A stretch of DNA of 64,000 nucleotides from a virus. Shown piece by piece: positions 2,759-19,768 of the stretch. Made by a program: the position numbers and the translations under genes. Where the stretch lies: the IMG/VR virus record IMGVR_UViG_3300022934_000003; one strand, written 5' to 3'. The stretch's first letter is position 1. Each line of letters starts with the position of its first letter. Below the pieces are notes generated by a model, which had not been told where the DNA came from, did no database searches, and saw nothing but the letters and a program-made list of their open reading frames with translations.

Positions 2759-4702
2759 ATGGCTTTTTCCGTAAGTCCTTCAGTAATTGTTCGTGAAGTA
2801 GACGCAAGCCAATCAGTACCTGCTGTTGCAACACCACCCGCTGCAATTGCTGGAGTATTTAGATGGGGCCCTACAAACGATCCAATTCTTATTACATCGG
2901 AAAATGATTTAGTAGATAGATTTGGTAAACCAACCGATGATAACTATGAAACATTTTTCACGGCGGCAGATTATCTGTCATATTCTAATGCTTTGTACGT
3001 AGTTCGTGCAGATGATAGCTCCAATACAGCTACTGCAACAAATATTGTTTACGATTCTAATAATAACATTGTTGTTGCTGACACAACATATGGTGGATTT
3101 GAAGCTAAATATCCTGGATCTTTAGGTAATTCACTTGAAGTTGCATGGGTTGATTCATCAGGATACTCAACAGAGTGGTTTGATGTTGGTGGTGTAGATG
3201 CAAATGCAGTATCAAATACTCAAGCAGAACAAACAGTAGATTTTGGCTCAACATCAGTAAGCTTTGAAACAGCAAACACGGTTCAATTACCAGCTCTTGG
3301 TATTGGAGATGTATTAAAGATTGGTAATTCAAGTGTTGGATATCAAGAATTAGTTGTTTCTGCTTATACAGAAACAGAACAAGAAAGAACATATGGTTCA
3401 GGTAATACAGCAGTTACTGTAGTAGAATCATACAAATACGATATTTCTTTCTCAAACAAATATACATTAGCTGAAAGTGATTTAAGTAAATTATCAGTAT
3501 CAAGAAATTGGCAATATGCTTCATCATTTGGTAAAGCGCCAGATGCAGATCATTTACACATTGCTGTAATTGATAAAGGTGGAGAAATTTCTGGAACAGA
3601 AGGTCAAATTCTCGAAAAATTTGAAAATGTTTCAACATCCGCTGCAGCAGTTACACCACAAGGTGCATCTAATTACTTTGCTAACGTAGTAGAAAATAGA
3701 TCAGAGTGGATTAAAAATGCAAATACTGCTCATGTAATTTCTACAGTTACCGACCAAACAGCTTCAACTGTTTATGAAAACTTTGTCGGTGGTGCAGATG
3801 CTAGTACTGAAACAACAGCAACATTAAGTACACTTGCATTTGCTTGGGATACACTTAAAAATGGAAATGAAATTGATATTTCTGGTGTATTACAAGGTAA
3901 AGGTGATAATGATGGTATTAGAGCAAACTATATTGTAGCAAATATTTGTGATACAAGAAAAGATTGTGTTGCTTATATCTCACCTTCTAAAGAAGCAGTT
4001 GTAGATGAACTTAAAACTAACGCTAAGATGGAAAATGCTATTGCATACCGTAATAAGATTCAAAATTCATCTTATTGGTTTATGGATTCAGGTTATAAGT
4101 ATCGTTATGATAAGTATAATGATGTTTATCGTTACACACCACTAAATGGTGATATGGCGGGTCTTGCTTCAAGAGTTGAATCTTGGGAATCACCTGCTGG
4201 ATTTAGAAAAGGTGTAATTAAAAATGTTATTAAATTAGCATTTAATCCTGGAAAAGCACAAAGAGATTTACTATACGGCTCAGATATTAATCCAGTTATG
4301 TCTCAAGTAGGACAAGGTATTGTACTATTTGGTGATAAAACAGGTCTTGGTACTACAAGCGCATTTGACAGACTTAACGTTCGTAGATTGTTTATTGACG
4401 TTGAAAAAGCAATTGCTACTGCAGCTGAAAGTTTCCTATTTGAATTTAACGATGAATTTACACAAAGTCGATTCAGAAATATCGTTGAGCCATTCTTAAG
4501 AGATATTCAAGGACGTCGTGGTATTATTGATTTTAGAGTTGTTTCTGACTCTACAGTTAATACTCCAGAAGTTATTGATGCTAATAAGTTTAGAGCAAGT
4601 ATCTTTATTAAGCCAGCTCGTTCTATTAATGTTATTGAACTTACGTTTGTGGCAACAAGAACCGGTGTTGAATTTGATGAAATCGTAGGTCAGTTAGGTT
4701 AA
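2759..4702 (+). CDS. tail sheath protein (gp18)
   Basis: SPSVIVREVD N-terminus, FRWGP, C-terminal RLNVRRLF and IKPARSIN. Confidence 0.97.
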   Translation: MAFSVSPSVIVREVDASQSVPAVATPPAAIAGVFRWGPTNDPILITSENDLVDRFGKPTDDNYETFFTAADYLSYSNALYVVRADDSSNTATATNIVYDSNNNIVVADTTYGGFEAKYPGSLGNSLEVAWVDSSGYSTEWFDVGGVDANAVSNTQAEQTVDFGSTSVSFETANTVQLPALGIGDVLKIGNSSVGYQELVVSAYTETEQERTYGSGNTAVTVVESYKYDISFSNKYTLAESDLSKLSVSRNWQYASSFGKAPDADHLHIAVIDKGGEISGTEGQILEKFENVSTSAAAVTPQGASNYFANVVENRSEWIKNANTAHVISTVTDQTASTVYENFVGGADASTETTATLSTLAFAWDTLKNGNEIDISGVLQGKGDNDGIRANYIVANICDTRKDCVAYISPSKEAVVDELKTNAKMENAIAYRNKIQNSSYWFMDSGYKYRYDKYNDVYRYTPLNGDMAGLASRVESWESPAGFRKGVIKNVIKLAFNPGKAQRDLLYGSDINPVMSQVGQGIVLFGDKTGLGTTSAFDRLNVRRLFIDVEKAIATAAESFLFEFNDEFTQSRFRNIVEPFLRDIQGRRGIIDFRVVSDSTVNTPEVIDANKFRASIFIKPARSINVIELTFVATRTGVEFDEIVGQLG

Positions 4703-9158: not shown

Positions 9159-10172
9159 ATGTCAAATGAACTAGACGAAAAGTTTGTTGCTGACCATTCG
9201 GGTGGAGACGTAGTTAAGCCAGCGGAAGCTGCTGAGCCCACTACTGCAGCCGGCGGCGCAATCAAAAAGAAAAAGGCAGACGTTAAAAAGTCTGTAGACC
9301 CTACAGCGGATAAAGTTCCAGCAACTGTTTCTGGCCAAGCAGATGGTGGTTCTCCTATGAAAGAAGATTCAGAGGTTGAAGCTGAGGATCACGTAGAAGA
9401 AATTATAGAAATTGATTCATCAATTGAACAAATGTTCGAAGGTATGGATCTTTCAGAAGAATTCAAAGATAAGGTATCTCTTGTTTTTGAAGCTGCTGTT
9501 AACGAAGCTGCTACTAAGAAAGCAGAATCTGCTATTACTGAGAAAGTAGAAGCAATGGAAACAGAAATGAAAGAATCTTTAGATACCGCAATTGATGGCA
9601 TCGTAGAGAATCTTGATTCTTACCTGGACTATGTAGTCGAGGAGTGGATGAAGGAGAACGAACTTGCAATCGAAACTGGTGTTAAGGTTGAGATGGCAGA
9701 GTCGTTAATGTCTGGTCTTAAGGATCTATTCGAAGAGCACAACATCGACGTTAGTGAGGAAACAATCGACGTAGTTGGTGAGCTTGAGTCTGAATTAGAA
9801 CAACTTAAGGTTACTGCAAATGAAGGTATTACTGAAAATGTAGAACTTCAAAAGCAAATTGCTGAGCTGAAAGCTGAGAAAGTATTCGATGAAATGACTG
9901 AAGATCTTACTATCACACAGAAAGAAAGATTGAAAGTACTTTCAGAGAAGTTGGATTTCTCTAACGCAGATGAGTACAAAGCAGATTTAGAAACTTTAAA
10001 AGAATCATTCTTTAAGAAAGATGCTAAAGTAACTGAAGCTGCAGACGCGGATAGCGAAGAAGAAATTATTACTGAAGAATCTGCTCAGGTTAAAAAGCCA
10101 GCATCAGATCATTATTCAATTAATGCTCTTGTTGAGGCTCTAGACGCAAGACGCAGTGCAGAAATGAAATAA
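9159..10172 (+). CDS. prohead scaffold protein (gp22)
   Basis: Acidic coiled coil; LSEEFK..VFEAAV and YLDYVVEEWMKENELAI motifs; lies between gp21 and gp23. Confidence 0.93.
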   Translation: MSNELDEKFVADHSGGDVVKPAEAAEPTTAAGGAIKKKKADVKKSVDPTADKVPATVSGQADGGSPMKEDSEVEAEDHVEEIIEIDSSIEQMFEGMDLSEEFKDKVSLVFEAAVNEAATKKAESAITEKVEAMETEMKESLDTAIDGIVENLDSYLDYVVEEWMKENELAIETGVKVEMAESLMSGLKDLFEEHNIDVSEETIDVVGELESELEQLKVTANEGITENVELQKQIAELKAEKVFDEMTEDLTITQKERLKVLSEKLDFSNADEYKADLETLKESFFKKDAKVTEAADADSEEEIITEESAQVKKPASDHYSINALVEALDARRSAEMK

Positions 10173-10179
10173 TTATTAT

Positions 10180-10187
10180 TATAAATA
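10180..10187 (+). promoter_or_regulatory. late promoter TATAAATA before gp23
   Basis: Exact consensus, intergenic. Confidence 0.8.
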
Positions 10188-10224
10188 GATCTAGAAACTT
10201 TAAATTACAAGGAGATAGAAAAAA

Positions 10225-11538
10225 ATGACACAGTCGAACTATCAAGCACTTGTGGAAAAGTGGGGCCCAATCCTTGAGCACGAATCTTTTTCACCTATTA
10301 AGGATCAGCACAAACGTGCTGTGACAGCAACAATCCTTGAGAACACCGAGAAGGCACTTGCCGAATCTGGTGATACTCAAGTTAACATGAGCTCTCTTTT
10401 AACAGAGTCTCCAACTAACGACGTAGGTTCAGATGGTGGATTTACTGCAGGCGCTACTGCAGCTGGTCCAGGTGCTGGTTACGATCCAGTACTTATTTCT
10501 CTAGTACGTCGTGCTATGCCAAATCTAATTGCATACGATATCGCGGGTGTCCAGCCAATGACTGGTCCTACTGGCCTTATTTTTGCAATGCGTTCACGTT
10601 ACACTAACCAAGCTGGCGGCGAAGCTTTCTATAACGAAGCAGACACCGACTTCTCAGGTACTGGTACACAAGCTGGTAACCTTGGTCAAGCTAATACTGA
10701 TGCAATCACTACTGGTACTGGTATGTCTACAGCAGATGCTGAAGATTTAGGTGATGGTGGTACATTTGCTGAAATGGCTTTCACTATTGAGAAAGTTACT
10801 GTATCAGCTAAATCAAGAGCTCTTAAAGCTGAGTACACTACTGAGCTAGCTCAGGATCTTAAAGCGGTTCACGGCTTGGATGCTGAGACTGAATTATCAA
10901 ATATTCTTCAGTCTGAAATCCTAGTTGAGATTAACCGTGAATTAGTAAGAACTATCTACACTAATGCTGTAGTTGGTGCTGCTGATACTGCTACTGCAGG
11001 TACATTTGATCTTGACGTTGATGCAAACGGTAGATGGTCAGTTGAGAAGTTCAAGGGACTTATGTTCCAAATTGAACAAGAAGCTAACGCGATCGCTAAA
11101 GCTACTCGTAGAGGAAAGGGTAACATCGTCTTGTGTTCATCAGACGTTGCTTCAGCTCTACAAATGGCTGGTGTATTGGATTACACTCCTGCTCTTAACA
11201 GCAACAACCTAGAAGTTGATGATACTGGTAATACTTTTGCTGGTGTTCTTAACGGTCGTTACAGAGTGTACATCGATCCATATGCTGGTGCAAACTATCT
11301 AGTAGTTGGTTATAAGGGTTCATCTGCTTTTGATGCAGGTCTATTCTATTGCCCATACGTTCCATTACAAATGGTTAGAGCAGTTGGTGAGAATAGTTTC
11401 CAGCCGAAAATTGGTTTCAAAACTCGTTACGGTATGGTTTCTAATCCATTCGCTCAAGGCGCTACTCAAGGTCTTGGTGCTCTTACTGATGATACTAACG
11501 TATACTACAGAAGAGTTAAGGTATCTAACTTATTCTAA
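10225..11538 (+). CDS. major capsid protein (gp23)
   Basis: DPVLISLVRRAMPNLIA, GVQPMTGPTGLIFAMR, KSRALKAEY, FQPKIGFKTRYG. Confidence 0.98.
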   Translation: MTQSNYQALVEKWGPILEHESFSPIKDQHKRAVTATILENTEKALAESGDTQVNMSSLLTESPTNDVGSDGGFTAGATAAGPGAGYDPVLISLVRRAMPNLIAYDIAGVQPMTGPTGLIFAMRSRYTNQAGGEAFYNEADTDFSGTGTQAGNLGQANTDAITTGTGMSTADAEDLGDGGTFAEMAFTIEKVTVSAKSRALKAEYTTELAQDLKAVHGLDAETELSNILQSEILVEINRELVRTIYTNAVVGAADTATAGTFDLDVDANGRWSVEKFKGLMFQIEQEANAIAKATRRGKGNIVLCSSDVASALQMAGVLDYTPALNSNNLEVDDTGNTFAGVLNGRYRVYIDPYAGANYLVVGYKGSSAFDAGLFYCPYVPLQMVRAVGENSFQPKIGFKTRYGMVSNPFAQGATQGLGALTDDTNVYYRRVKVSNLF

Positions 11539-11560
11539 GAATAAAGGTACTACAAAACTT

Positions 11561-11588
11561 AAAGGGAGTCGAAAGGCTCCCTTTTTTT
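11561..11588 (+). terminator. intrinsic terminator after gp23
   Basis: AAAGGGAGTC-GAAA-GGCTCCCTTT hairpin running into a T tract. Confidence 0.9.
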
Positions 11589-11631
11589 ATGTAATATATC
11601 TAAAGGTATATTAATTTTATACTTAAAAAAG

Positions 11632-11672
11632 TATAAATAATAGTTGACATGGACGTAAAAATGTATTATAAT
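11632..11672 (+). promoter_or_regulatory. tandem late (TATAAATA 11632-11639) and sigma70/early (TTGACA 11644-11649, 17 bp, TATAAT 11667-11672) promoters for dsrA
   Basis: Both consensus elements are exact; SD AAGGAG precedes the ATG at 11704. Confidence 0.85.
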
Positions 11673-11703
11673 AAAGTATAGTGCATTTATAATAAGGAGA
11701 ATT

Positions 11704-13008
11704 ATGCCAGAACTATATAACACACCCAACCTTGATGAGTTGGAAAAAGGACCTTGGCCTTCCTTTGTAACAGGCCTAAAACGATTAGCACAGGACGATC
11801 ATGCCGGTGCAGCACAAGTTAGAGATGTTTTAGCAACACTTGAAACATCTTATGTAACTAAAAAAGGATATTGGAAAGGTGGTACTGTCGGTGTCGTAGG
11901 ATACGGTGGAGGAATTATTCCACGTTTCAACGAACTAAAAGACGAGAACGGTGACTACAAATTTAAAAATGCTGGAGAGTTTCATACTCTAAGAATACAA
12001 CCACCAGCAGGTATGCATTATACATCACAATTATTAAGAGATCTATCTGACATGTTTGTCGATAACGGTGGATCTGGATTGATTGCTTTTCATGGTCAAT
12101 CAGGTGATATTATGATGCAAGGAGCAGATGAAAAAGGTGTACAAAAGATTTTTAACGCGCTTAATGATTACGGTTTTGACCTTGGTGGTGCTGGTCCTGC
12201 TGTACGAACTGGAATGGCTTGTGTGGGAGCATCTCGCTGTGAGATGAGTAATGCTAATGAGCAAGGTATTCTAAGAACTTTAGTAAATGCTTTTCTTGAT
12301 GATATGCATAGACCTGCTCTTCCATATAAATTCAAATTTAAAGTATCAGGTTGTGCCAATGACTGTATGAACTCTATTGAAAGATCAGATATGTCAACAA
12401 TTGGTACATGGAGAGATGACATCAAGATTAACCAGAGATCATGGGTTAAGATGGTAGAAGACAAAGGAATGGAATATGTTAATGATAACATTATTTCTCG
12501 TTGTCCTACACAATGTATGTCAGTAGATACTAAATCATTAGAGTTATCAATTGATAATAAGAACTGTGTTAAGTGTATGCATTGTATGAATGTAACATCA
12601 CCTCTAACACATAAGTATAATGATATTGGTGATTTCTCTGGAATATTATCTCCAGGAGATGATAAAGGTGTAACTATCTCAGTAGGTGGTAAGAGAACTC
12701 TGAAGATTGGTGATCTATTTGGTACTGTAGTTATTCCTTTCCTTAAAGTAGATACTGCAGAGGATTACGAATACCTTGAAGAACTTGCTGGTGAAATGAT
12801 TGACTTCTTTGCAGAGAATGCATTGGAGCATGAAAGAACTGGAGAGATGATTGAAAGAATAGGTATTGTAAACTTCCTTGAAGGAATTGGATTGAATGTT
12901 GATCCTAATATGATCGAGTCCCCTCGTTATATGTCATATGTTCGTATGGACAAGTGGGATGAAGAAGCTACTAAATGGTTCGAGAATAAAGCCGAAAAAG
13001 TAGCATAA
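11704..13008 (+). CDS. dsrA: dissimilatory sulfite reductase alpha subunit, oxidative (reverse) type; auxiliary metabolic gene
   Basis: TPNLDELEKGPWPSFV N-terminus, YWKGG, FHTLRIQPPAG, CX5C (CVGASRC) and CX3C (GCANDC), YKFKFK, ferredoxin insert CPTQC..CVKCMHC, ERTGEMIER. Confidence 0.97.
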   Translation: MPELYNTPNLDELEKGPWPSFVTGLKRLAQDDHAGAAQVRDVLATLETSYVTKKGYWKGGTVGVVGYGGGIIPRFNELKDENGDYKFKNAGEFHTLRIQPPAGMHYTSQLLRDLSDMFVDNGGSGLIAFHGQSGDIMMQGADEKGVQKIFNALNDYGFDLGGAGPAVRTGMACVGASRCEMSNANEQGILRTLVNAFLDDMHRPALPYKFKFKVSGCANDCMNSIERSDMSTIGTWRDDIKINQRSWVKMVEDKGMEYVNDNIISRCPTQCMSVDTKSLELSIDNKNCVKCMHCMNVTSPLTHKYNDIGDFSGILSPGDDKGVTISVGGKRTLKIGDLFGTVVIPFLKVDTAEDYEYLEELAGEMIDFFAENALEHERTGEMIERIGIVNFLEGIGLNVDPNMIESPRYMSYVRMDKWDEEATKWFENKAEKVA

Positions 13009-13178
13009 TGAAAACTAATCAACGCCAAGCATTTGAATGGTGGGATAAGTTAAATATAAATCAGAAGGTTTGGTACGGACAAATGTTTCCTGAGTTTGCA
13101 AATAAATCACAATTAATTTATAGAGCATATCAGGAACATTTAGTAAGTACCAAATCACATCTTAGAATAGTAGAATAG
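13008..13178 (+). CDS. 56-aa hypothetical (MKTNQRQAFEWW...), not in the ORF track
   Basis: ATG overlaps the dsrA stop (TAATG coupling). Confidence 0.55.
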   Translation: MKTNQRQAFEWWDKLNINQKVWYGQMFPEFANKSQLIYRAYQEHLVSTKSHLRIVE

Positions 13179-13187
13179 GATTATATT

Positions 13188-13325
13188 ATGGAATATATTA
13201 TGAATAACCCAATGGTTTTATATGAATGGTTTGGAATGGGATTAGGACTGCTAGCAGCAGCATTTATTACACTTGGGCCGATCTATATATTTTGTAATTA
13301 CTTAGACGGTAAATACGACAAATAA
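13188..13325 (+). CDS. 45-aa single-pass membrane peptide
   Basis: SD AGGA; hydrophobic stretch WFGMGLGLLAAAFITLGPIYIF. Confidence 0.55.
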   Translation: MEYIMNNPMVLYEWFGMGLGLLAAAFITLGPIYIFCNYLDGKYDK

Positions 13326-13372
13326 ATTTAATATCTATATCTTAAGAGATATACGTTTTTCAATGATACGTA

Positions 13373-13380
13373 TATAAATA
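13373..13380 (+). promoter_or_regulatory. late promoter TATAAATA upstream of the micro-ORF/tusA/dsrC run
   Basis: Exact consensus in a non-coding gap. Confidence 0.7.
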
Positions 13381-13416
13381 AAATTACCACTATTTAATAT
13401 ACCACAGGAGGTTATA

Positions 13417-13503
13417 ATGAAGAAATACTTGGACCTATACTTGGCGAAATGCCCATTACCAAAAGCAATTCGTTACGTAAAAGCAAAGCTAAGCGAGTCG
13501 TAG
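13417..13503 (+). CDS. 28-aa peptide MKKYLDLYLAKCPLPKAIRYVKAKLSES with TusA-like LDx5CPLP motif
   Basis: Strong SD AGGAGG; first ORF after a late promoter. Confidence 0.45.
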   Translation: MKKYLDLYLAKCPLPKAIRYVKAKLSES

Positions 13504-13537
13504 AAAACGACTGGCGTAAAATGAAATTTCAAATTCA

Positions 13538-13663
13538 ATGATTCACATCTGTGGTTATTGTGGAAAAAGATTCTCTGATAAAAAACATAGTTCGCCTGAT
13601 GGAACAATATCATTCTGTTCCTACGAATGCAAAATTATCTGGAATTATAAAAAGAAAAAGTAA
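13538..13663 (+). CDS. 41-aa TRASH/YHS-like Cys metal-binding micro-protein
   Basis: MIHICGYCGKRF...FCSYECKIIW, i.e. CxxC-x18-CSxxC. Confidence 0.6.
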   Translation: MIHICGYCGKRFSDKKHSSPDGTISFCSYECKIIWNYKKKK

Positions 13664-13666
13664 ATA

Positions 13667-13828
13667 ATGTGGGCTTTAATATATTCCATTATTGTTATTG
13701 GAACTACGGAGCCTGTCGTGTATAGTTTAAGTAATTATCAAACATACGTTGAATGTTTTCATAGCATGAAAGTCCATTCAGCAAAATTAAGAAAAAACGA
13801 AGCTTTACACTGTATAATGATAAAATAA
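13667..13828 (+). CDS. 53-aa hypothetical with hydrophobic N-terminus and two Cys
   Basis: MWALIYSIIVIG...; fills the gap before tusA. Confidence 0.5.
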   Translation: MWALIYSIIVIGTTEPVVYSLSNYQTYVECFHSMKVHSAKLRKNEALHCIMIK

Positions 13829-13840
13829 CAAGGAGGTTAT

Positions 13841-14065
13841 ATGGCAGATGAAATCTTAGATGCCAAGGGACTTAATTGTCCACTCCCTATTCTTAAAACA
13901 AAGAAAGCAATTTCTAAACTAGAATCTGGTCAGACTTTAGAAGTACATTCTACTGATGCCGGTTCAGTTAAAGATATGGAAGCATTTTGTAATCAAACTG
14001 GTCACAAAATTATTTCAAACGAAGAAAATAATGGTGAGTATATATTCACTATTCAAAAAGCATAG
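13841..14065 (+). CDS. tusA: sulfur carrier protein TusA (SirA family)
   Basis: LDAKGLNCPLP motif, GQTLEV..TDAGSVKDM..FC..TGH; 74 aa. Confidence 0.95.
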   Translation: MADEILDAKGLNCPLPILKTKKAISKLESGQTLEVHSTDAGSVKDMEAFCNQTGHKIISNEENNGEYIFTIQKA

Positions 14066-14074
14066 GAGAAAATT

Positions 14075-14398
14075 ATGGCAGATGTATTAGGAGCACCAGT
14101 AGATGAAGAAGGTTTTTTAGTAAACCTTGGAGACTGGAAAAAAGAAATCGCTGAAGAAATGGCGAAAATGGAAGATGTAGAATTGACTGATGAGCATTGG
14201 GATGTTCTTAACTTTCTAAGAGAATATTATGAAGAATATCAAATCGCACCTGCGGTTCGTGTTTTGACTAAAGCAATTGCTAAGAAGATGGGTAAAGACA
14301 AAGGAAACAGTAAATACTTGTATAGTTTGTTCCCTTATGGTCCTGGTAAGCAGGGTTGTAAATTCGCAGGATTACCTAAACCAACTGGTTGTATTTAA
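14075..14398 (+). CDS. dsrC: DsrC sulfur-relay protein (two C-terminal Cys)
   Basis: DEEGFL, LTDEHW, YLYSLFPYGP, GCKFAGLPKPTGCI (CX10C). Confidence 0.95.
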   Translation: MADVLGAPVDEEGFLVNLGDWKKEIAEEMAKMEDVELTDEHWDVLNFLREYYEEYQIAPAVRVLTKAIAKKMGKDKGNSKYLYSLFPYGPGKQGCKFAGLPKPTGCI

Positions 14399-14715
14399 AT
14401 AGTAAAACTTTCACCACAACCACAGCGGGCCTTTTCGTTAGGATTAACAAATTCAAATCCTTCGTTAAGGCCTTCTTTCTTATAATCTAATGTAGATCCA
14501 AAGAAAACATTAGACCATTTCTTATTGATAGTAATTTCAATATCGTTATCTCTTATAATAACATCATCCTGATCAGACTGATTATTCCATTCTAATTGAT
14601 AGGCATAACCAGAACAACCAGTAGTTGAAACACCTACTCTTAAACCGGAATATTTGTTATTTGCTTTAAGAAGTTCTTTAATCTTCTCAGCTGCTTTGTT
14701 TGTTATTGTAATCAT
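14395..14715 (-). CDS. iscA: A-type Fe-S carrier IscA
   Basis: ITITNKAA, LRVGV.TTGCSG, NPNEKARCGCGESF. Confidence 0.94.
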   Translation of the reverse strand: MITITNKAAEKIKELLKANNKYSGLRVGVSTTGCSGYAYQLEWNNQSDQDDVIIRDNDIEITINKKWSNVFFGSTLDYKKEGLNEGFEFVNPNEKARCGCGESFTI

Positions 14716-15070
14716 TTATGGCACTCTTAATTGCATCTTCAGCTAAAACTGAACAATGAACTTTAACTGGTGGTAATGCTAAATCTTCAGCAATATCTGT
14801 ATTTTTGATTTGCTTTGCTTCATCTAAAGTTAAACCTTTAACCCACTCAGTAAGCAAAGAACTTGATGCGATTGCTGATCCACAACCATAAGTTTTAAAC
14901 TTGGCGTCTTCGATAATCCCATCTGGGGATACTTTTATTTGTAGCCTCATTACATCCCCACAAGCAGGAGCTCCTACCATTCCCGTGCCTACAGATGCAT
15001 CAGAGGTATCCATAGAACCTACATTACGTGGGTTCTCATAATGATCTAAAACTTTACCTGAATAAGCCAT
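14687..15070 (-). CDS. iscU: Fe-S scaffold IscU
   Basis: YSGKVLDHYENPRNVG, GAPACGDVM, FKTYGCGSAIAS, LPPVKVHCS. Confidence 0.97.
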   Translation of the reverse strand: MAYSGKVLDHYENPRNVGSMDTSDASVGTGMVGAPACGDVMRLQIKVSPDGIIEDAKFKTYGCGSAIASSSLLTEWVKGLTLDEAKQIKNTDIAEDLALPPVKVHCSVLAEDAIKSAINDYNNKQSS

Positions 15071-15092
15071 ATATTAACCTCCTGTAATATTG

Positions 15093-15106
15093 TTATTTAT
15101 AAATAA
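15093..15106. promoter_or_regulatory. palindromic back-to-back late promoters TTATTTATAAATAA
   Basis: TATAAATA on both strands between the divergent iscU and HExxH genes. Confidence 0.7.
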
Positions 15107-15110
15107 TATC

Positions 15111-15494
15111 ATGGTAAAAATCTTATTTTTACTAAGTTTATTTTTCTCTTCAATTGCATCTGCAATATCTGTATCGAAAGACAATTATGACTTAGCATAT
15201 TTCGGGCAAGACGCGAAAGTTATTCCTAAAAGGTCTGACTTTACGGTACATTTGTATGTTGCGTTAACTGATGAAGATATGCAAGCTTTATGGAAAGAAT
15301 TTAATAAAGATCCTGATAAAAAAAGTTGGCATGTAAAAGGATTTGCACTAGTAAACGAAGAAACGGCTAAATGTATTGTTGTTATTCCACCACCAAGTAG
15401 TTGGGATGATAGAGAAACATTAGCAATCCTTGGTCATGAAATACTTCATTGTACTGGAGCAGTTCATCCAAAACCTCTTGATGCTAACCAATAA
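15111..15494 (+). CDS. exported protein with HExxH metallopeptidase-like motif
   Basis: Signal-peptide-like MVKILFLLSLFFSSIASA; GHEILHC; likely start is the ATG at 15111. Confidence 0.6.
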   Translation: MVKILFLLSLFFSSIASAISVSKDNYDLAYFGQDAKVIPKRSDFTVHLYVALTDEDMQALWKEFNKDPDKKSWHVKGFALVNEETAKCIVVIPPPSSWDDRETLAILGHEILHCTGAVHPKPLDANQ

Positions 15495-15620
15495 TTCTTG
15501 GTCCGTTTAATATTTTTCCAAAAGTTTCAAAATATGTGCGGGCAACCATTTGATTATCCGCATTAGTTGTCATATCTCTTGGAATACCATCAATTAAAAT
15601 TTTAGCTTTCCAAATATACA

Positions 15621-15860
15621 TTATATTTCTTCTATACTAATTATTGTATTTTTGAGAATATCTTCGTATTCTCCTTTTTGTTTTTCTACAACTATTCTAT
15701 CACTTTGTTCGTTAACCCAATTAACAACAACTCCTTCGACAGATAATTCTTTACCAGTTTTCCAATGTTTAAATTTTACTTTTTGCATCTTTTTCGCAGT
15801 ATTTTTCTTGCTGTGTAAAAAAGTCTTCTTCTTCCCAATCTGGAGCTGAAGTAAATTCAA
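15621..15860 (-). CDS. small hypothetical (true start probably internal, MQKVKFKHW)
   Basis: Fits the - strand gene run. Confidence 0.45.
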   Translation of the reverse strand: MNLLQLQIGKKKTFLHSKKNTAKKMQKVKFKHWKTGKELSVEGVVVNWVNEQSDRIVVEKQKGEYEDILKNTIISIEEI

Positions 15861-16026
15861 TTATCTTTCCAGTTCTTCTACTATAAACTCCTTTATCAGT
15901 AACAACTATATTTTGATCAATATATAAAATTTCATCACCATAACTATCATCAAATGCATTTATAACCGTAGCTTCTGATGCAAATGATATTAGAAAAAAT
16001 AATGTTATAATAAAAAATTTATACAT
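15769..16026 (-). CDS. small secreted/membrane hypothetical
   Basis: N-terminal signal-like sequence. Confidence 0.5.
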   Translation of the reverse strand: MYKFFIITLFFLISFASEATVINAFDDSYGDEILYIDQNIVVTDKGVYSRRTGKIIEFTSAPDWEEEDFFTQQEKYCEKDAKSKI

Positions 16027-16030
16027 AAAA

Positions 16031-16147
16031 TTATTTATTTTTAACCCAATTTAAACTACACTTGGCACTACAAAAAAATATTTGTCTATCATACGTGTGA
16101 TAAACTGGGCTAAAAATTGTTTTATTACAAACGGCGCAATTATGCAT
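16031..16147 (-). CDS. 38-aa TRASH/YHS-like micro-protein MHNCAVCNKTIFSPVYHTYDRQIFFCSAKCSLNWVKNK
   Basis: Translated by hand; overlaps the stop of the upstream gene; CxxC...FCSxxC. Confidence 0.6.
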   Translation of the reverse strand: MHNCAVCNKTIFSPVYHTYDRQIFFCSAKCSLNWVKNK

Positions 16148-16427
16148 CTAATGCTGTTGTACTACTGCCCATAACAGCTTCTGCAAAAGACATAAATTCT
16201 TCGTTCTTAGCTGCTTCTTGAGCAAGGTTAGATGCATGAAAAATTCTTGCAAGTTTATTAAAGTCTTTTTTAGGAACTCCACAATCTTCAAGAACTTTAT
16301 CACCAATTGCTTTTTGATGATCTTTTTCTGCTTCAACTCTTGTCATAGAATTTGACATTTCTTGTAAAGCATCTTGAATTACTTTACGAGTATCAGGAGT
16401 AATAACCTGTGGTAACATTGTATCCAT
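16140..16427 (-). CDS. T4 DsbA-like double-stranded DNA-binding protein
   Basis: DCGVPKKDFNKLARIFH resembles T4 DsbA (ELGVDGKMFNRLLALYH, from recall); similar size. Confidence 0.7.
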   Translation of the reverse strand: MDTMLPQVITPDTRKVIQDALQEMSNSMTRVEAEKDHQKAIGDKVLEDCGVPKKDFNKLARIFHASNLAQEAAKNEEFMSFAEAVMGSSTTALDA

Positions 16428-16440
16428 AATATATTCCTTA

Positions 16441-16629
16441 TTATTTTGCCGCTTTACGAGCTGCTTTTGTTTCTGAAATTTCTTTTCTGCGAGCTTTTAC
16501 AGCGTTAGCCATTTCTTGAAGAGCTTTACGTGCTCTTGTACCAGCTGCACCATTGCCACCTTCAAATTTTTCGTTCTCCATAAGAAAAGTATCCATTGCT
16601 TCTTTTAAAGCGTTTGTTGTTTCACTCAT
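16441..16629 (-). CDS. histone H1-like Hc1 family protein
   Basis: GNGAAGTRARKAL motif; basic C-terminus. Confidence 0.75.
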   Translation of the reverse strand: MSETTNALKEAMDTFLMENEKFEGGNGAAGTRARKALQEMANAVKARRKEISETKAARKAAK

Positions 16630-16641
16630 TTTTTTCTCCGG

Positions 16642-17049
16642 TTAAAGCTCACCATCTTCACGCATTTTTGCACGAATTTTGGTTGCGCTAATATTGTGAA
16701 TTTCTTCACCCAAATCATGCTGAGTAAATGTATACCCAACACCTCTACCATAGCTAATATCGACAATATTTGGAACACAAATAATAATATATTCGTATCC
16801 ATTGCGATAGCCGTGTTTTTCTAATGCCTTTTCGATGTTTTCTACTACAATAATTTCACCAAAAGGATTATCAGTTTGTGCACAAGTTCTGCCATCACCA
16901 GCATCACCATCATAATTGTAAACGTCTCGAACCATAATACACACTTGACCAGTTTCTTCCATAGCTTTTTTAAATAAAGCTGTGTGACCGTCATGCCAAG
17001 GTTGCCAACGTCCTAACATTTGTGCTGTAGGTTTTTTATAATCAAACAT
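16642..17049 (-). CDS. HxGH (HIGH-superfamily) nucleotidyltransferase
   Basis: LGRWQPWHDGH and C-terminal ISATKIR. Confidence 0.8.
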   Translation of the reverse strand: MFDYKKPTAQMLGRWQPWHDGHTALFKKAMEETGQVCIMVRDVYNYDGDAGDGRTCAQTDNPFGEIIVVENIEKALEKHGYRNGYEYIIICVPNIVDISYGRGVGYTFTQHDLGEEIHNISATKIRAKMREDGEL

Positions 17050-17461
17050 TAATTAACCTCTTAATAGTATTTGACAATTCTTTAATCTCTTCATCTGTTA
17101 AATGAGAGTCTACTTTAAATGTAATATGCTCAGGAGGTTGAAACATTTGATTAGTATCTTCAAATCTTCCTTCTTTAATAGTATCTACCCAAATAACAAG
17201 ATCTGCATCAAATTCATGTCGCGTCTTTTTAGTTGGACAAACAAAATCGCATATTACTAATCTTCCATTTTCTTTTTCATAATCTGCTATATTACGCATT
17301 CGTTTAGATTGTCGATCTCTTCCTTCTAAACTAAAATCCCAATCATTTGCTTGAGAGCGAATTTTATCTGCATTAAACCATGCACAATCTAAATTTTTTT
17401 GTAATCGTTGAGCCAGATGAGTTTTACCTGCTCCAGGTAGACCCATTACCAAAATTTTCAT
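17042..17461 (-). CDS. cysC: adenylylsulfate (APS) kinase-like P-loop kinase
   Basis: GLPGAGKT, NADKIR, DFSLEGRDRQ, DFVCP, FQPPE. Confidence 0.75.
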   Translation of the reverse strand: MKILVMGLPGAGKTHLAQRLQKNLDCAWFNADKIRSQANDWDFSLEGRDRQSKRMRNIADYEKENGRLVICDFVCPTKKTRHEFDADLVIWVDTIKEGRFEDTNQMFQPPEHITFKVDSHLTDEEIKELSNTIKRLINV

Positions 17462-17803
17462 CTAATATCTTTCCTCTGTAAAAAACCAACCAACAAATAG
17501 AGAAATAGTATATGTTGCAGCATGCAATGCTAATCCGCCTGCTAAAAAATACCACTCATTCATATATAATATATATGCAACTGCGCCATTAGTTAATTGT
17601 GATGTAAATTGTGATAGAATTTCAAACTTAGGATTACTAGCGAATTCAGCAATATCTGCAGTTCCTAATAATGATCCGACTCCAAATACATGTATAAAGA
17701 TATGCCAAAATGCTAATCCTAAAGCACCAAACATAAACTCAAAGTCGCCAGTACCGACATATAATGCCATACTGGCGATATTAATTCCTGTTGTAATAGT
17801 CAT
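17462..17803 (-). CDS. membrane protein
   Basis: Several hydrophobic segments. Confidence 0.6.
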   Translation of the reverse strand: MTITTGINIASMALYVGTGDFEFMFGALGLAFWHIFIHVFGVGSLLGTADIAEFASNPKFEILSQFTSQLTNGAVAYILYMNEWYFLAGGLALHAATYTISLFVGWFFTEERY

Positions 17804-17824
17804 TAATATATTGAGTGAGGCAGC

Positions 17825-18781
17825 TTACGCTGCCTCCGCTAATTCAATAGCTAGATCTAGAGCTTCAACTTTACGTTTAGCATTAGAACCAAACCAAGCA
17901 GAAGTCATGCGAGTATCAGTCGAGCGTCCTAGTTCGTGGTCAGCCATATAGGTAACCGCGTTATAGGCATTCCACCAGGTGCCGGGACGGAAATTGTCGC
18001 CCGGCTGATCCTCAACTCTCGCCATTGCTAGTTCAGCAGTGGGAGATAGAATACGATCTTCGCGAGTACTTTCGCCAAAGACCTGACCAAAGAAGCGCTC
18101 TAAGCTAGCGGCGTCGTAGCGTTTAGAACCGAGGAACTCGGCTGCTTCTTTGAATTTCTGGACTCTATTGTGAGAGAGACCCAGAACCTCTTTAACCTTT
18201 TCAGGGTTAAACTCATTTCTGTGATTCAATCGAATTGAAGGCTGTCCTTTTTCAGTAAGTGCAACAGCAAGTGTATTATTACAAACAACACGTTCCATTA
18301 CAAACTTAATATCAACAGACTTTCCATATTGATGTGGATTCGAGAATAGCAGATATCCTTTTACTTCATCACCATTAAATAGTGAGAAACCATCTTTAAC
18401 ATCAGCAAGAGCCCATACGATTTGTCCACCTTTAAGTGAACCGGCAGTATCCATAATCATATCGCCAGAGCTAACAAATTCTTTAAAGAAATCGAAAGCC
18501 TCTGCGTTTTGGACAGGGTTCCAACCTTTACCAACGTTAGTTAGAATTTTTCCATCAGTAGAACGAACTAGCGCTTGTTGGCCAGTTGGTAGTTCTTTAT
18601 TATTATGTGTATAGAATGTATCAACTTTTGATACTTCCCAATCAAGTCCTGCAGTAATCATCATTTCTTCAGGAGTCATATCGTCACTAACTGGAGTACC
18701 ATATCCATGCCAAGGTTTACCCTTAGATTCACGGTAAGCCATTTGAGCAACGCCATCTACAAATTCAAGTTCATGTGCCAT
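17825..18781 (-). CDS. DUF932 / phage-plasmid TIGR03299-like protein
   Basis: MAHELE, PWHG.G, AGLDWEV, TAGSLKGG, RVVCNNTL, GTWWNAYNAVT. Confidence 0.88.
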   Translation of the reverse strand: MAHELEFVDGVAQMAYRESKGKPWHGYGTPVSDDMTPEEMMITAGLDWEVSKVDTFYTHNNKELPTGQQALVRSTDGKILTNVGKGWNPVQNAEAFDFFKEFVSSGDMIMDTAGSLKGGQIVWALADVKDGFSLFNGDEVKGYLLFSNPHQYGKSVDIKFVMERVVCNNTLAVALTEKGQPSIRLNHRNEFNPEKVKEVLGLSHNRVQKFKEAAEFLGSKRYDAASLERFFGQVFGESTREDRILSPTAELAMARVEDQPGDNFRPGTWWNAYNAVTYMADHELGRSTDTRMTSAWFGSNAKRKVEALDLAIELAEAA

Positions 18782-18813
18782 TTTTTTTCCTTTTTTATTT
18801 AACTTACTATATT

Positions 18814-18842
18814 ATTATACATCATTTTAAAAGATATGTCAA
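18814..18842 (-). promoter_or_regulatory. early sigma70-type promoter
   Basis: TTGACA-17-TATAAT on the - strand. Confidence 0.8.
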
Positions 18843-18850
18843 CTGTTTTT

Positions 18851-19198
18851 TTAAACATATCCTCTTTTATCACCATAACGATCGAAATACTTCCAACCTT
18901 CTCCGTCATATAGATAAAGAAACTCTGCTCCATAGTACATAGCAGACTTCCAAAATTCTTCTTCAGTTTTAAACATATCTGGCTCTTCACGATGCACAGA
19001 TCTATTAATACTTTCTCTTAAATCTTTTGTTAAAGCAGAAATATATCCAGAGTTAGCAACAGCTTCTGCTTTGTCTGGAGTATTATAATAAGTTTTTAAA
19101 ATCTCTCCGTTATGCTCTAAATATCCGTCATAATGACAGTAAGTAGAAGTAACAGTTCCATCTTCATTTAAATTTGCAATTGCTGATCGTGTACCCAT
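18851..19198 (-). CDS. conserved phage hypothetical (MGTRS..YCHYDGY)
   Basis: Recognisable phage-family motif; part of an early operon. Confidence 0.65.
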   Translation of the reverse strand: MGTRSAIANLNEDGTVTSTYCHYDGYLEHNGEILKTYYNTPDKAEAVANSGYISALTKDLRESINRSVHREEPDMFKTEEEFWKSAMYYGAEFLYLYDGEGWKYFDRYGDKRGYV

Positions 19199-19440
19199 TA
19201 TAATATCACCTCTTTTTCGCCAAACATTTCACAAGCTTTAATTATGCTGTTAATAAATTTTTCACTTACAACATCTTTGCTTTCGCCATTTTGTTCAATA
19301 GTTAAAATATCTCCTGTAAGATCTGAACCATCGCACCATCCAGTAACTTTAGTTTCAGTAAGATCAAACTCACCTGTTTTAATATTAAATACTGGCATAT
19401 TAAATTTCATTCCAACTAATTCCATATTACGCTCCTGCAA
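19198..19440 (-). CDS. hypothetical early protein
   Basis: Coupled ORF. Confidence 0.5.
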   Translation of the reverse strand: MQERNMELVGMKFNMPVFNIKTGEFDLTETKVTGWCDGSDLTGDILTIEQNGESKDVVSEKFINSIIKACEMFGEKEVIL

Positions 19441-19768
19441 ATTGTTTCATAAATTCTTTTGATACTTTTTCTTGATGTTCTTTGAAACCAATTTCTAATT
19501 GATCTTCAACTGATTTAAGAAATTCGATAGTATCAGCAGCATCAGCCATAGCAGCCGCAAAGTTACGAGCTCTAACAACTGGATCAAAACCTTTTTCATG
19601 ACCACCTGAACTTGAACCTAAATCAAAAGTCCATTTGCCATTGTGTCTTTCAATATGTAAAGTGATAGTATCGTCAGTCCAAAAACCTTCGATATTCCAC
19701 CAAATATGAGCTGAACCTTGAGCAATTTCTTTAATAGTGAATTGTGATCTTGTAAATTGTTTATTCAT
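19427..19768 (-). CDS. hypothetical early protein
   Basis: First gene after the promoter; SD AAGGTG. Confidence 0.6.
   Translation of the reverse strand: MNKQFTRSQFTIKEIAQGSAHIWWNIEGFWTDDTITLHIERHNGKWTFDLGSSSGGHEKGFDPVVRARNFAAAMADAADTIEFLKSVEDQLEIGFKEHQEKVSKEFMKQFAGA

Follow-up and report, generated by a model that had tools for sequence, protein, structure and literature searches.

A 64-kb stretch of viral DNA, IMG/VR record IMGVR_UViG_3300022934_000003 (hereafter the window; statements on absent genes cover these 64 kb of a source phage genome of ~200 kb), carries downstream of the capsid gene gp23 the sulfur genes dsrA, tusA and dsrC on the plus strand and the iron-sulfur (Fe-S) assembly genes iscA and iscU on the minus strand. 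We give a probability of about 80% to the reading that this stretch is an auxiliary-metabolic-gene island with which a T4-like myovirus of ~200 kb supplements the sulfur oxidation of its host. That host would most likely be a coastal member of the SUP05 family (Thioglobaceae), and the five named proteins look functional. The DNA is part of a T4-like myovirus: Pfam recognized large terminase, tail sheath, portal, prohead protease, scaffold and gp23 genes on the plus strand upstream of the island, and the minus-strand genes from ~15.1 kb on include a T4 DsbA-like late regulator, NrdA and tail-fibre genes. Sulfur genes are thus found on the same contig as gp23, portal, terminase and sheath, which is what defines a phage sulfur island. 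Such islands form a known class, of which the present one is a rearranged member.

The phage DsrA exhibited the features of the oxidative enzyme. It scored 482.7 bits against TIGR02064 (cut-off 392.85), with residues 10-431 of 434 covered, and grouped with sulfur oxidisers, not sulfate reducers. Residues C173, C179, C217 and C221 make up the Cx5C...Cx3C siroheme-[4Fe-4S] motif, C267, C288, C291 and C294 lie in the ferredoxin domain, and all eight cluster-binding cysteines were kept in 79 of 79 relatives and matched PDB 3mm5_A on alignment. Compared with Thioglobaceae (SUP05, Thioglobus, Ruthia, and mussel and clam symbionts), the protein was 78-85% identical to the DsrA that heads dsrAB(EFH)C operons and nested within the DsrA radiation of the family (78-89% identity); values fell to 61-64% for Chromatiales-type DsrA and 44% for the next group. 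The closest dsrB-linked bacterial DsrA, at 85%, came from a genome denoted here L130. Maximum-likelihood analysis joined the window, its IMG/VR twin, phage locus L002 and a dsrB-less contig from a metagenome-assembled genome (MAG), L129, in one clade, with L130 as its sister.

DsrC and TusA pointed to the same donors. DsrC is 107 residues long, has C95 and C106 in a Cx10C arrangement with the last cysteine penultimate, and aligned end to end, to the last residue, with Allochromatium vinosum DsrC (PDB 1yx3). It was 80-88% identical to the DsrC encoded after dsrABEFH in Thioglobaceae operons, and the closest one (88%) was from L130 (also G005), the genome that holds the closest dsrA. TusA has Cys13 in NCPLP, the CPxP active site, invariant in 15 phage and host sequences; its identity was 73-74% to the Thioglobaceae tusA product adjoining dsrE2 (the DrsE_2 gene), versus 34-38% to the second host paralogue. 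In phages, tusA of this sulfur type usually adjoins dsrC. Judged by these identities, dsrA, dsrC and tusA derive from the SUP05 family. The ratio of nonsynonymous to synonymous substitution rates (dN/dS) was 0.03-0.07 for dsrA and 0.03-0.13 over dsrA, dsrC, tusA and iscU, phage-to-phage pairs included and with dS saturated.

IscU reached 223.6 bits against TIGR01999 (cut-off 192.4) and, aligned to E. coli IscU (PDB 2l4x), retained C37, D39, C63, H105, C106 and the LPPVK motif. IscA passed the subfamily cut-off of TIGR00049 (111.4 bits versus 58.8); since it scored 112 bits against the IscA equivalog, below the cut-off of 150.6, we call it an A-type carrier and not a strict IscA orthologue. Its C34, C98 and C100 (Cx63CxC) align with those of E. 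coli IscA (PDB 1s98), and its closest relatives were unnamed metagenomic proteins on phage-like contigs.

A preliminary description of this DNA had placed five intact genes after the gp23 terminator, with all conserved cysteines preserved. Open reading frames (ORFs) and Pfam/NCBIfam matches agreed with the former statement, alignments with solved structures and relatives with the latter. It had also read dsrA, tusA and dsrC as a continuous run: genes and order were as described, whereas dsrA and tusA turned out not to be adjacent, 832 bp with five small ORFs (orf56, orf45, a 28-aa micro-ORF, orf41 and orf53) lying between them. The island thus runs dsrA, the five small ORFs, tusA and dsrC on the plus strand, iscA and iscU on the minus strand, then orf127 on the plus strand. 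The overlapping dsrC and iscA stops that had been noticed at 14395-14398 were found again as a 4-nt overlap (14390-14398 reads tgt att taa, with the iscA stop on the minus strand at 14395-14397), and iscU and iscA overlap by 29 nt. At the point of convergence of dsrC and iscA, RNA folding revealed no terminator-like structure (z = -0.9). Rfam gave nothing above gathering scores.

The preliminary description had proposed to look for the synteny in IMG/VR, and linkage of the genes was recurrent there. Thirteen non-redundant phage dsrA loci extended 3 kb or more past the gene; in 11 of them iscU lay within 6 kb of dsrA, in 7 iscA, in 5 tusA and in 4 a close dsrC. All five genes occurred together in 3300003086_000037/42/45, 3300003086_000082 (= 3300001681_000700) and 3300048640_000499, and 3300001515_000292 held the set with a TusE-like dsrC. 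Host loci read dsrABEFHC and had no tusA or isc genes nearby, a context unlike that of the island. A sibling phage from the same sample series (L258/9), whose DsrA and IscA are 92% and 93% identical to those of the window, lacks tusA and has its genes co-directional, in the order orf127-like, dsrA, orf56, micro-ORF, orf53-like, dsrC, three small ORFs, iscU, iscA. The convergent layout of the window is therefore a lineage-specific local inversion. The gene set survives rearrangement, and linkage of dsr, tus and isc genes recurs across different phage backbones.

Contigs 3300003086_000037/42/45 and _000082 are genomes of the Lau/Guaymas SUP05 viruses (Lauvirus lau218, KJ183191-3; IMG 3300003086). 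The belief that the five-gene combination had gone undescribed in a phage thus did not hold, as the set is present in these published viruses. Like the window, they have a phage-borne oxidative dsrA and a two-Cys dsrC of Thioglobaceae origin and no dsrB, with tusA, iscU and iscA in the same cluster. Unlike it, their contigs are co-directional, in the order dsrA-dsrC-tusA-iscU-iscA or dsrA-dsrA-iscU-iscA-tusA-dsrC. The window further differs by its T4-like myovirus backbone, with the island right after gp23, by its source, which appears to be coastal or salt-marsh water and not vent plumes, and by its DsrA clade, separated from the Lau-type phage clade with support of 96-99 in the Shimodaira-Hasegawa-like approximate likelihood-ratio test (SH-aLRT). 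Capture of dsrA by phages, or replacement of its allele, has therefore happened more than once. The 2014 study of Anantharaman et al. (Science 344:757) on SUP05 viruses of the Lau Basin and Guaymas plumes reportedly touches on genes for Fe-S clusters and sulfur relay as well.

Kieft et al. (2021, Nat Commun 12:3503, PMC8190135) listed 191 phage contigs with dsrA, dsrC/tusE or sox genes, 69% of them assigned to Myoviridae, and found NifU, IscA, GrxD and TusA commonly within five genes of the phage sulfur gene, so that such neighbours too were already on record. The supplement of PMC8190135 includes dsrA contigs from the Groves Creek salt-marsh series, among them metagenome 3300018418, which holds a contig with proteins 98-100% identical to those of the window. 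That these salt-marsh contigs are the present phage is not established: nucleotide identity to Lau218 dsrA is 71.6% there versus 74.7% here (last 810 nt). We found nothing in PMC8190135 on the order of genes seen here, on their promoters, or on the CPxP micro-ORF and the HExxH protein described below.

These data suggest a scenario in which the phage would have taken dsrA, dsrC and the DsrE2-partner paralogue of tusA from its host lineage. In the cytoplasmic route, persulfide sulfur would move from Rhd/DsrE2 to TusA, DsrEFH and DsrC, and DsrAB would then release sulfite. Phage DsrA, DsrC and TusA would add to the reverse-Dsr pathway of the host during infection, the host supplying DsrB, DsrEFH, DsrMKJOP, siroheme and IscS, none of which the window provides, and electron flow and ATP supply would be kept up while the phage replicates. 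TusA would hand its persulfide to DsrE or DsrC. The iscU-iscA module has come to lie beside dsrA repeatedly. The product of dsrA needs two [4Fe-4S] clusters, and the module would probably help load them, though its function in phages is general. What the sequences show directly is the identity and intactness of the genes, their donors, purifying selection on them, the recurrent linkage and the promoter motifs; we infer the timing of expression, the pairing of phage DsrA with host DsrB, the flow of sulfur and any benefit to the phage.

The Rhd-TusA-DsrE2 to DsrEFH to DsrC relay of Allochromatium vinosum, reportedly worked out by Stockdreher et al. in 2014, offers a close model. The phage proteins are of the same families with the same active-site cysteines, and the tusA homologue of the host adjoins dsrE2, an arrangement also seen in sulfur oxidisers; the phage has two relay members (TusA and DsrC) and one enzyme subunit. 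Cyanophages carry psbA and psbD, copies of subunits of the host energy machinery that are expressed from phage promoters. The sulfur island follows the same logic in a different pathway, and we have no evidence of a rapid turnover of DsrA, unlike the case of psbA. TusA/DsrE cascades are treated in PMC11094781, and supplementation of host sulfur oxidation is the published interpretation of such phages (PMC8190135, PMC4164917), which nothing here contradicts.

Several observations weigh against supplementation by one coherent island. In two variants, L220 and L224 (98-99% identical to the window right of the break), other genes stand upstream of dsrA, with the break at 11689-11695, and in L227 a one-Cys DsrC/TusE-like gene replaces dsrA-orf56-orf45, with the break at 13423, at the start of the micro-ORF. 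We read all three as natural modular variants of what seems a recombination-prone island; such swaps make the island modular and no fixed unit. No dsrB, dsrEFH or iscS was found in the window, 64 of ~200 kb being covered: the ORFs of a 17-kb host dsr operon matched dsrA and dsrC only, and host DsrB cross-matched dsrA alone, at 23% identity. We know of no case in which a DsrA without its own DsrB was shown to assemble with a host subunit. Identity comparisons gave no SUP05 donor signal for IscU or IscA. Indeed, IscU was 80-81% identical to Thioglobaceae and ~78% to E. coli proteins, and IscA, 44-47% identical to Thioglobaceae IscA, aligned with E. coli IscA at a similar distance. Furthermore, of the 80 closest iscU loci in phages (74-84% identity), 78 had neither dsrA, dsrC nor tusA within 6 kb, iscA being present in 40 of them, and a 70%-identical IscA adjoins nrdAB and a 2-oxoglutarate-Fe(II) oxygenase.

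By these comparisons, iscU-iscA is a general, widespread phage Fe-S assembly module. This breadth and the missing donor signal weaken the idea of one compact unit put forward in the preliminary description, of which the gene identities and their linkage stood. Likewise, of the common SUP05/Thioglobaceae origin in question for all five proteins, the part concerning dsrA, dsrC and tusA was borne out and that concerning iscU and iscA was not. A possibility, which we regard as less likely than not, was that iscU-iscA has nothing specific to do with Dsr and provides a general Fe-S supply for other Fe-S or iron enzymes of the phage, having come to lie beside dsrA merely through accessory genes piling up in a variable island. 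Such a view accommodates the dsr-less iscU loci, the nrdAB neighbourhood, the missing SUP05 donor signal, the position in a recombination hot spot and the presence of nifU and iscA among common phage proteins in Kieft et al. 2021 (PMC8190135). It fits less well with the 11 of 13 dsrA loci that have iscU within 6 kb, since these loci come from differing backbones and from two or more dsrA clades acquired independently, and with a linkage of iscU to dsrA that outlives the inversion between the sibling phages.

Another explanation assigned tusA and dsrC to a TusA/TusE-type relay for tRNA 2-thiouridine or molybdenum-cofactor synthesis, which would tune translation in infection. DsrC and TusE do form one family (TIGR03342), E. 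coli TusA is a tRNA-thiolation protein (PDB 3lvj), and one-Cys DsrC/TusE-like genes are common in phages without dsrA, besides the one that replaces the dsrA module in L227. The window DsrC, however, has both arm cysteines and its high identity to the host-operon protein, and it scored 118.9 bits against the TusE equivalog, below the cut-off of 191. The phage TusA, for its part, resembles the host copy beside dsrE2 far more than the other paralogue, and both genes sit with dsrA. We therefore consider the tRNA relay quite unlikely and retain sulfur oxidation as the probable role of tusA and dsrC.

The absence of dsrB bears on a further alternative, namely that phage DsrA works without host DsrB, either alone or as a homo-oligomer, or that it titrates DsrC, siroheme or DsrB, and so would redirect sulfur flow instead of boosting it. 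That DsrB, DsrEFH and IscS would be left to the host had been anticipated in the preliminary description, and their genes are indeed missing from the window; some phages with tandem dsrA genes (L009, L012/13) still have no dsrB. Yet the identity of 78-89% to host DsrA, the full set of cluster-binding cysteines and the dN/dS of 0.03-0.07 argue for the ancestral role in an alpha-beta enzyme, and no evidence for a new interface was found. The dsrB-less state is a known condition of phage dsrA. We thus hold a DsrA acting apart from host DsrB to be very improbable and favour its addition to the host enzyme.

Additional dsrA loci were noticed on the way. The tandem pairs span L009:3638-6242 and L012:4623-7293 (= 3300003086_000082), have no dsrB and are 77-81% identical to the window dsrA; their second copies form a clade of their own among Thioglobus DsrA. 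Short contigs binned in Gammaproteobacteria MAGs (L129, VMDI01000066.1; L195; L201-L203) carry a dsrA 87-93% identical to that of the window. No dsrB is visible in L129, L195, L201 and L202, the last three of which end inside dsrA. L203 looks bacterial because a dsrB-like gene and dsrC follow its dsrA. The dsrB-less MAG contigs may be phage contigs mis-binned as bacterial.

Since the preliminary description had feared a chimera at 11.6 or 15.1 kb, the soundness of the assembly was of importance. The exact IscA protein was found on at least 24 contigs, the longest of 216.7 kb. We compared ten places, each from a different sample, with the window: at least four assemblies matched 9395-19715 end to end without a break at 99.8-99.9% identity, and three more matched up to their own contig end inside dsrA. 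In all, one or both junctions are bridged by at least ten independent metagenome assemblies with 99.8-99.96% identity. The stretch scaffold-gp23-dsrA-tusA is also contained in an IMG/VR contig of metagenome 3300018418, whose DsrA shares 99.5% and whose remaining proteins share 98-100% identity with their window counterparts, and gp23 is followed by dsrA in three more distant T4-like contigs (L015, L019, L028). Both junctions are real, as they are reproduced in assemblies from different samples, and a chimera is excluded. An assembly artefact, or bacterial DNA misjoined to a phage contig, to which the divergence of L220, L224 and L227 at the breaks given above might have pointed, is extremely unlikely given these independent assemblies, the recurrence of gp23 before dsrA, the phage-type promoters that flank the genes and the fact that tusA and isc genes are not near dsrA in host genomes.

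The features of the island and of related loci are collected in Table 1.

Table 1. Features of the sulfur island and its borders (window coordinates), followed by homologues of two small ORFs in other loci
Feature	Position	Strand	Basis or remark
gp23, T4-like major capsid protein	10225..11538	+	PF07068, E 2.4e-147; left border of island
Terminator-like hairpin 3' of gp23	11561..11584	+	10-bp stem, 5 G-C pairs, then TTTTTAT
Late promoter motif TATAAATA, T4-type, upstream of dsrA	11632..11639	+	assigned by position
Perfect TTGACA-17-TATAAT promoter, apparent early class	11644..11672	+	32 nt before dsrA start codon
dsrA, oxidative-type dissimilatory sulfite reductase alpha	11704..13008	+	TIGR02064
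orf56	13008..13178	+	ATG shares a base with dsrA stop codon; no Pfam match
orf45, hydrophobic 45-aa ORF	13188..13325	+	called as a gene in independent assemblies
Micro-ORF, 28 aa, KCPLPK motif	13417..13503	+	own AGGAGG ribosome-binding site; TATAAATA at 13373
orf41, CxxC...CxxC zinc-ribbon-like	13538..13663	+	44% homologues between dsrA/orf56 and iscU in L021, L022
orf53, small hydrophobic protein	13667..13828	+	68% homologue before dsrC in L258/9; called in L222, L225
tusA, sulfur carrier, dissimilatory type	13841..14065	+	PF01206, E 6.7e-26
dsrC, both C-terminal arm cysteines	14075..14398	+	PF04358, E 1.1e-43; TIGR03342
iscA, A-type Fe-S carrier	14395..14715	-	TIGR00049
iscU, Fe-S scaffold	14687..15070	-	TIGR01999
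Late promoter motif TATAAATA, 24 nt upstream of iscU	15094..15101	-	AGGAGG ribosome-binding site between motif and iscU ATG
orf127, signal-peptide protein, GHExxHC-x4-H zinc-type motif	15111..15494	+	small family
Micro-ORF homologues	L002:7468-7551, L231:5225-5335, L234:5234-5323, L239:4586-4672		
Micro-ORF homologues	L245:4838-4927, L250:4870-4980, L258:~3497-3580		
orf127 homologues	L004:316-780, L005:12112-12639, L265:5001-5378, L268:697-1080		

The promoters suggest how the island may be expressed. The late motif TATAAATA occurs 16 times in the window, always oriented with the local genes, and in most cases a start codon follows 24-65 nt further on (sheath, protease, scaffold, gp23, dsrA, iscU). 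Its assignment as a late promoter rests on position, because the overall count is not enriched (16 versus 13.4 expected). The copy before iscU is near-palindromic, with a second TATAAATA on the plus strand at 15098-15105. By contrast with its total, the perfect TTGACA-N17-TATAAT promoter was found in 13 copies versus 0.2 expected from counts and shuffles. Twelve belong to the early region (18814-54221), on the minus strand and in a TTGACAT context, with the extended consensus TTGACATnTTCTTnAAACT...TATAAT, and the one before dsrA is the sole plus-strand copy. This set appears to be the early promoter class of the phage. From these positions, we predict both early and late transcription for dsrA-tusA-dsrC and late transcription for iscU-iscA. 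The pairing of an early and a late promoter before dsrA is possibly new.

We then considered the small ORFs of the island. orf56 is translationally coupled to dsrA, and its conservation extends over five related lineages: homologues with 48-96% identity lie directly 3' of dsrA in L021, L022, L258/9 and L265. For orf45, no homologues were found beyond near-identical strains.

The micro-ORF had 14 distinct homologues of 25-37 aa; those examined, the majority, each have a ribosome-binding site of their own. In their alignment, M, C, P and P were invariant, and an R three residues past CPxP was present in 12 of 14. The motif often reads N/K-C-P-x-P-K/R-x-x-R, is followed by a basic helix and resembles the active-site loop of TusA. 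The sibling phage and no fewer than 12 IMG/VR lineages have a homologue beside phage tusA, dsrC or dsrA, on the same strand; the neighbour is nearly always tusA/dsrC, and dsrA in two lineages. Close copies differed by synonymous changes. As controls, iscU-only phage loci (703 kb) and Thioglobaceae loci (1.04 Mb) gave 0 matches, and tblastn against deposited phage genomes found nothing. A complex prediction for phage TusA with the micro-protein (the cognate L231 pair, with alignments) scored 0.02, which speaks neither for nor against binding.

The orf127 family counts ~40 representatives among 1.8 billion proteins, and its members carry a signal peptide. The GHExxHC-x4-H motif was invariant in 24 members, as were two cysteines. 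Homologues adjoin phage dsrA or dsrC, or lie within a few kb of a tusA/dsr cluster, in L004, L005-7, L009, L231, L237/8, L258/9, L264, L265 and L268. As a reverse check, four members were picked blind to dsr, and all three whose contig extended beyond the gene directly adjoin dsrA or dsrC. Pfam, PDB sequences (searched with a 24-member profile) and Foldseek (at E <= 0.001) all yielded no match, and a word-indexed protein search returned the query alone. The structural model (predicted local distance difference test score, pLDDT, of 66) gave weak matches to YbeY (Z 5.1-5.6) and collagenase zincins (Z 4.2-4.6), below a trustworthy level.

It is conceivable, if rather speculative, that the conserved core of phage sulfur islands exceeds the named genes and that the micro-protein, orf127 and orf56 join the sulfur relay. 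The micro-protein might carry persulfide in minimal form or serve as a decoy by which host sulfurtransferases are redirected, and a secreted orf127 protein might act on periplasmic sulfur stores or their envelope. A limited literature search found no description of the micro-ORF, the orf127 family or orf56, and all three may be new.

Outside the island, two genes overlap at 16642-17461 on the minus strand: one encodes an APS (adenosine 5'-phosphosulfate)-kinase-like P-loop protein (PF01583, E 7.7e-09), and the other, of 135 aa, resembles HxGH nucleotidyltransferases (weak PF01467 match). The two could be a NadR-like pair or one related to PAPS (3'-phosphoadenosine 5'-phosphosulfate).

That phage sulfur-oxidation genes can shift the oxidation of reduced sulfur by SUP05-type bacteria in oxygen-poor and coastal waters has been in print since 2014. 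To this, the window adds a well-assembled T4-like example from coastal/salt-marsh samples, with clear donors and a predicted early and late expression of dsrA, and it shows that dsr, tusA and isc genes remain linked when the island is rearranged. As targets for learning how phages tap the sulfur relay of their hosts, the CPxP micro-ORF, orf56 and the secreted HExxH protein, which recur with phage dsr and tusA genes, are of greater use.

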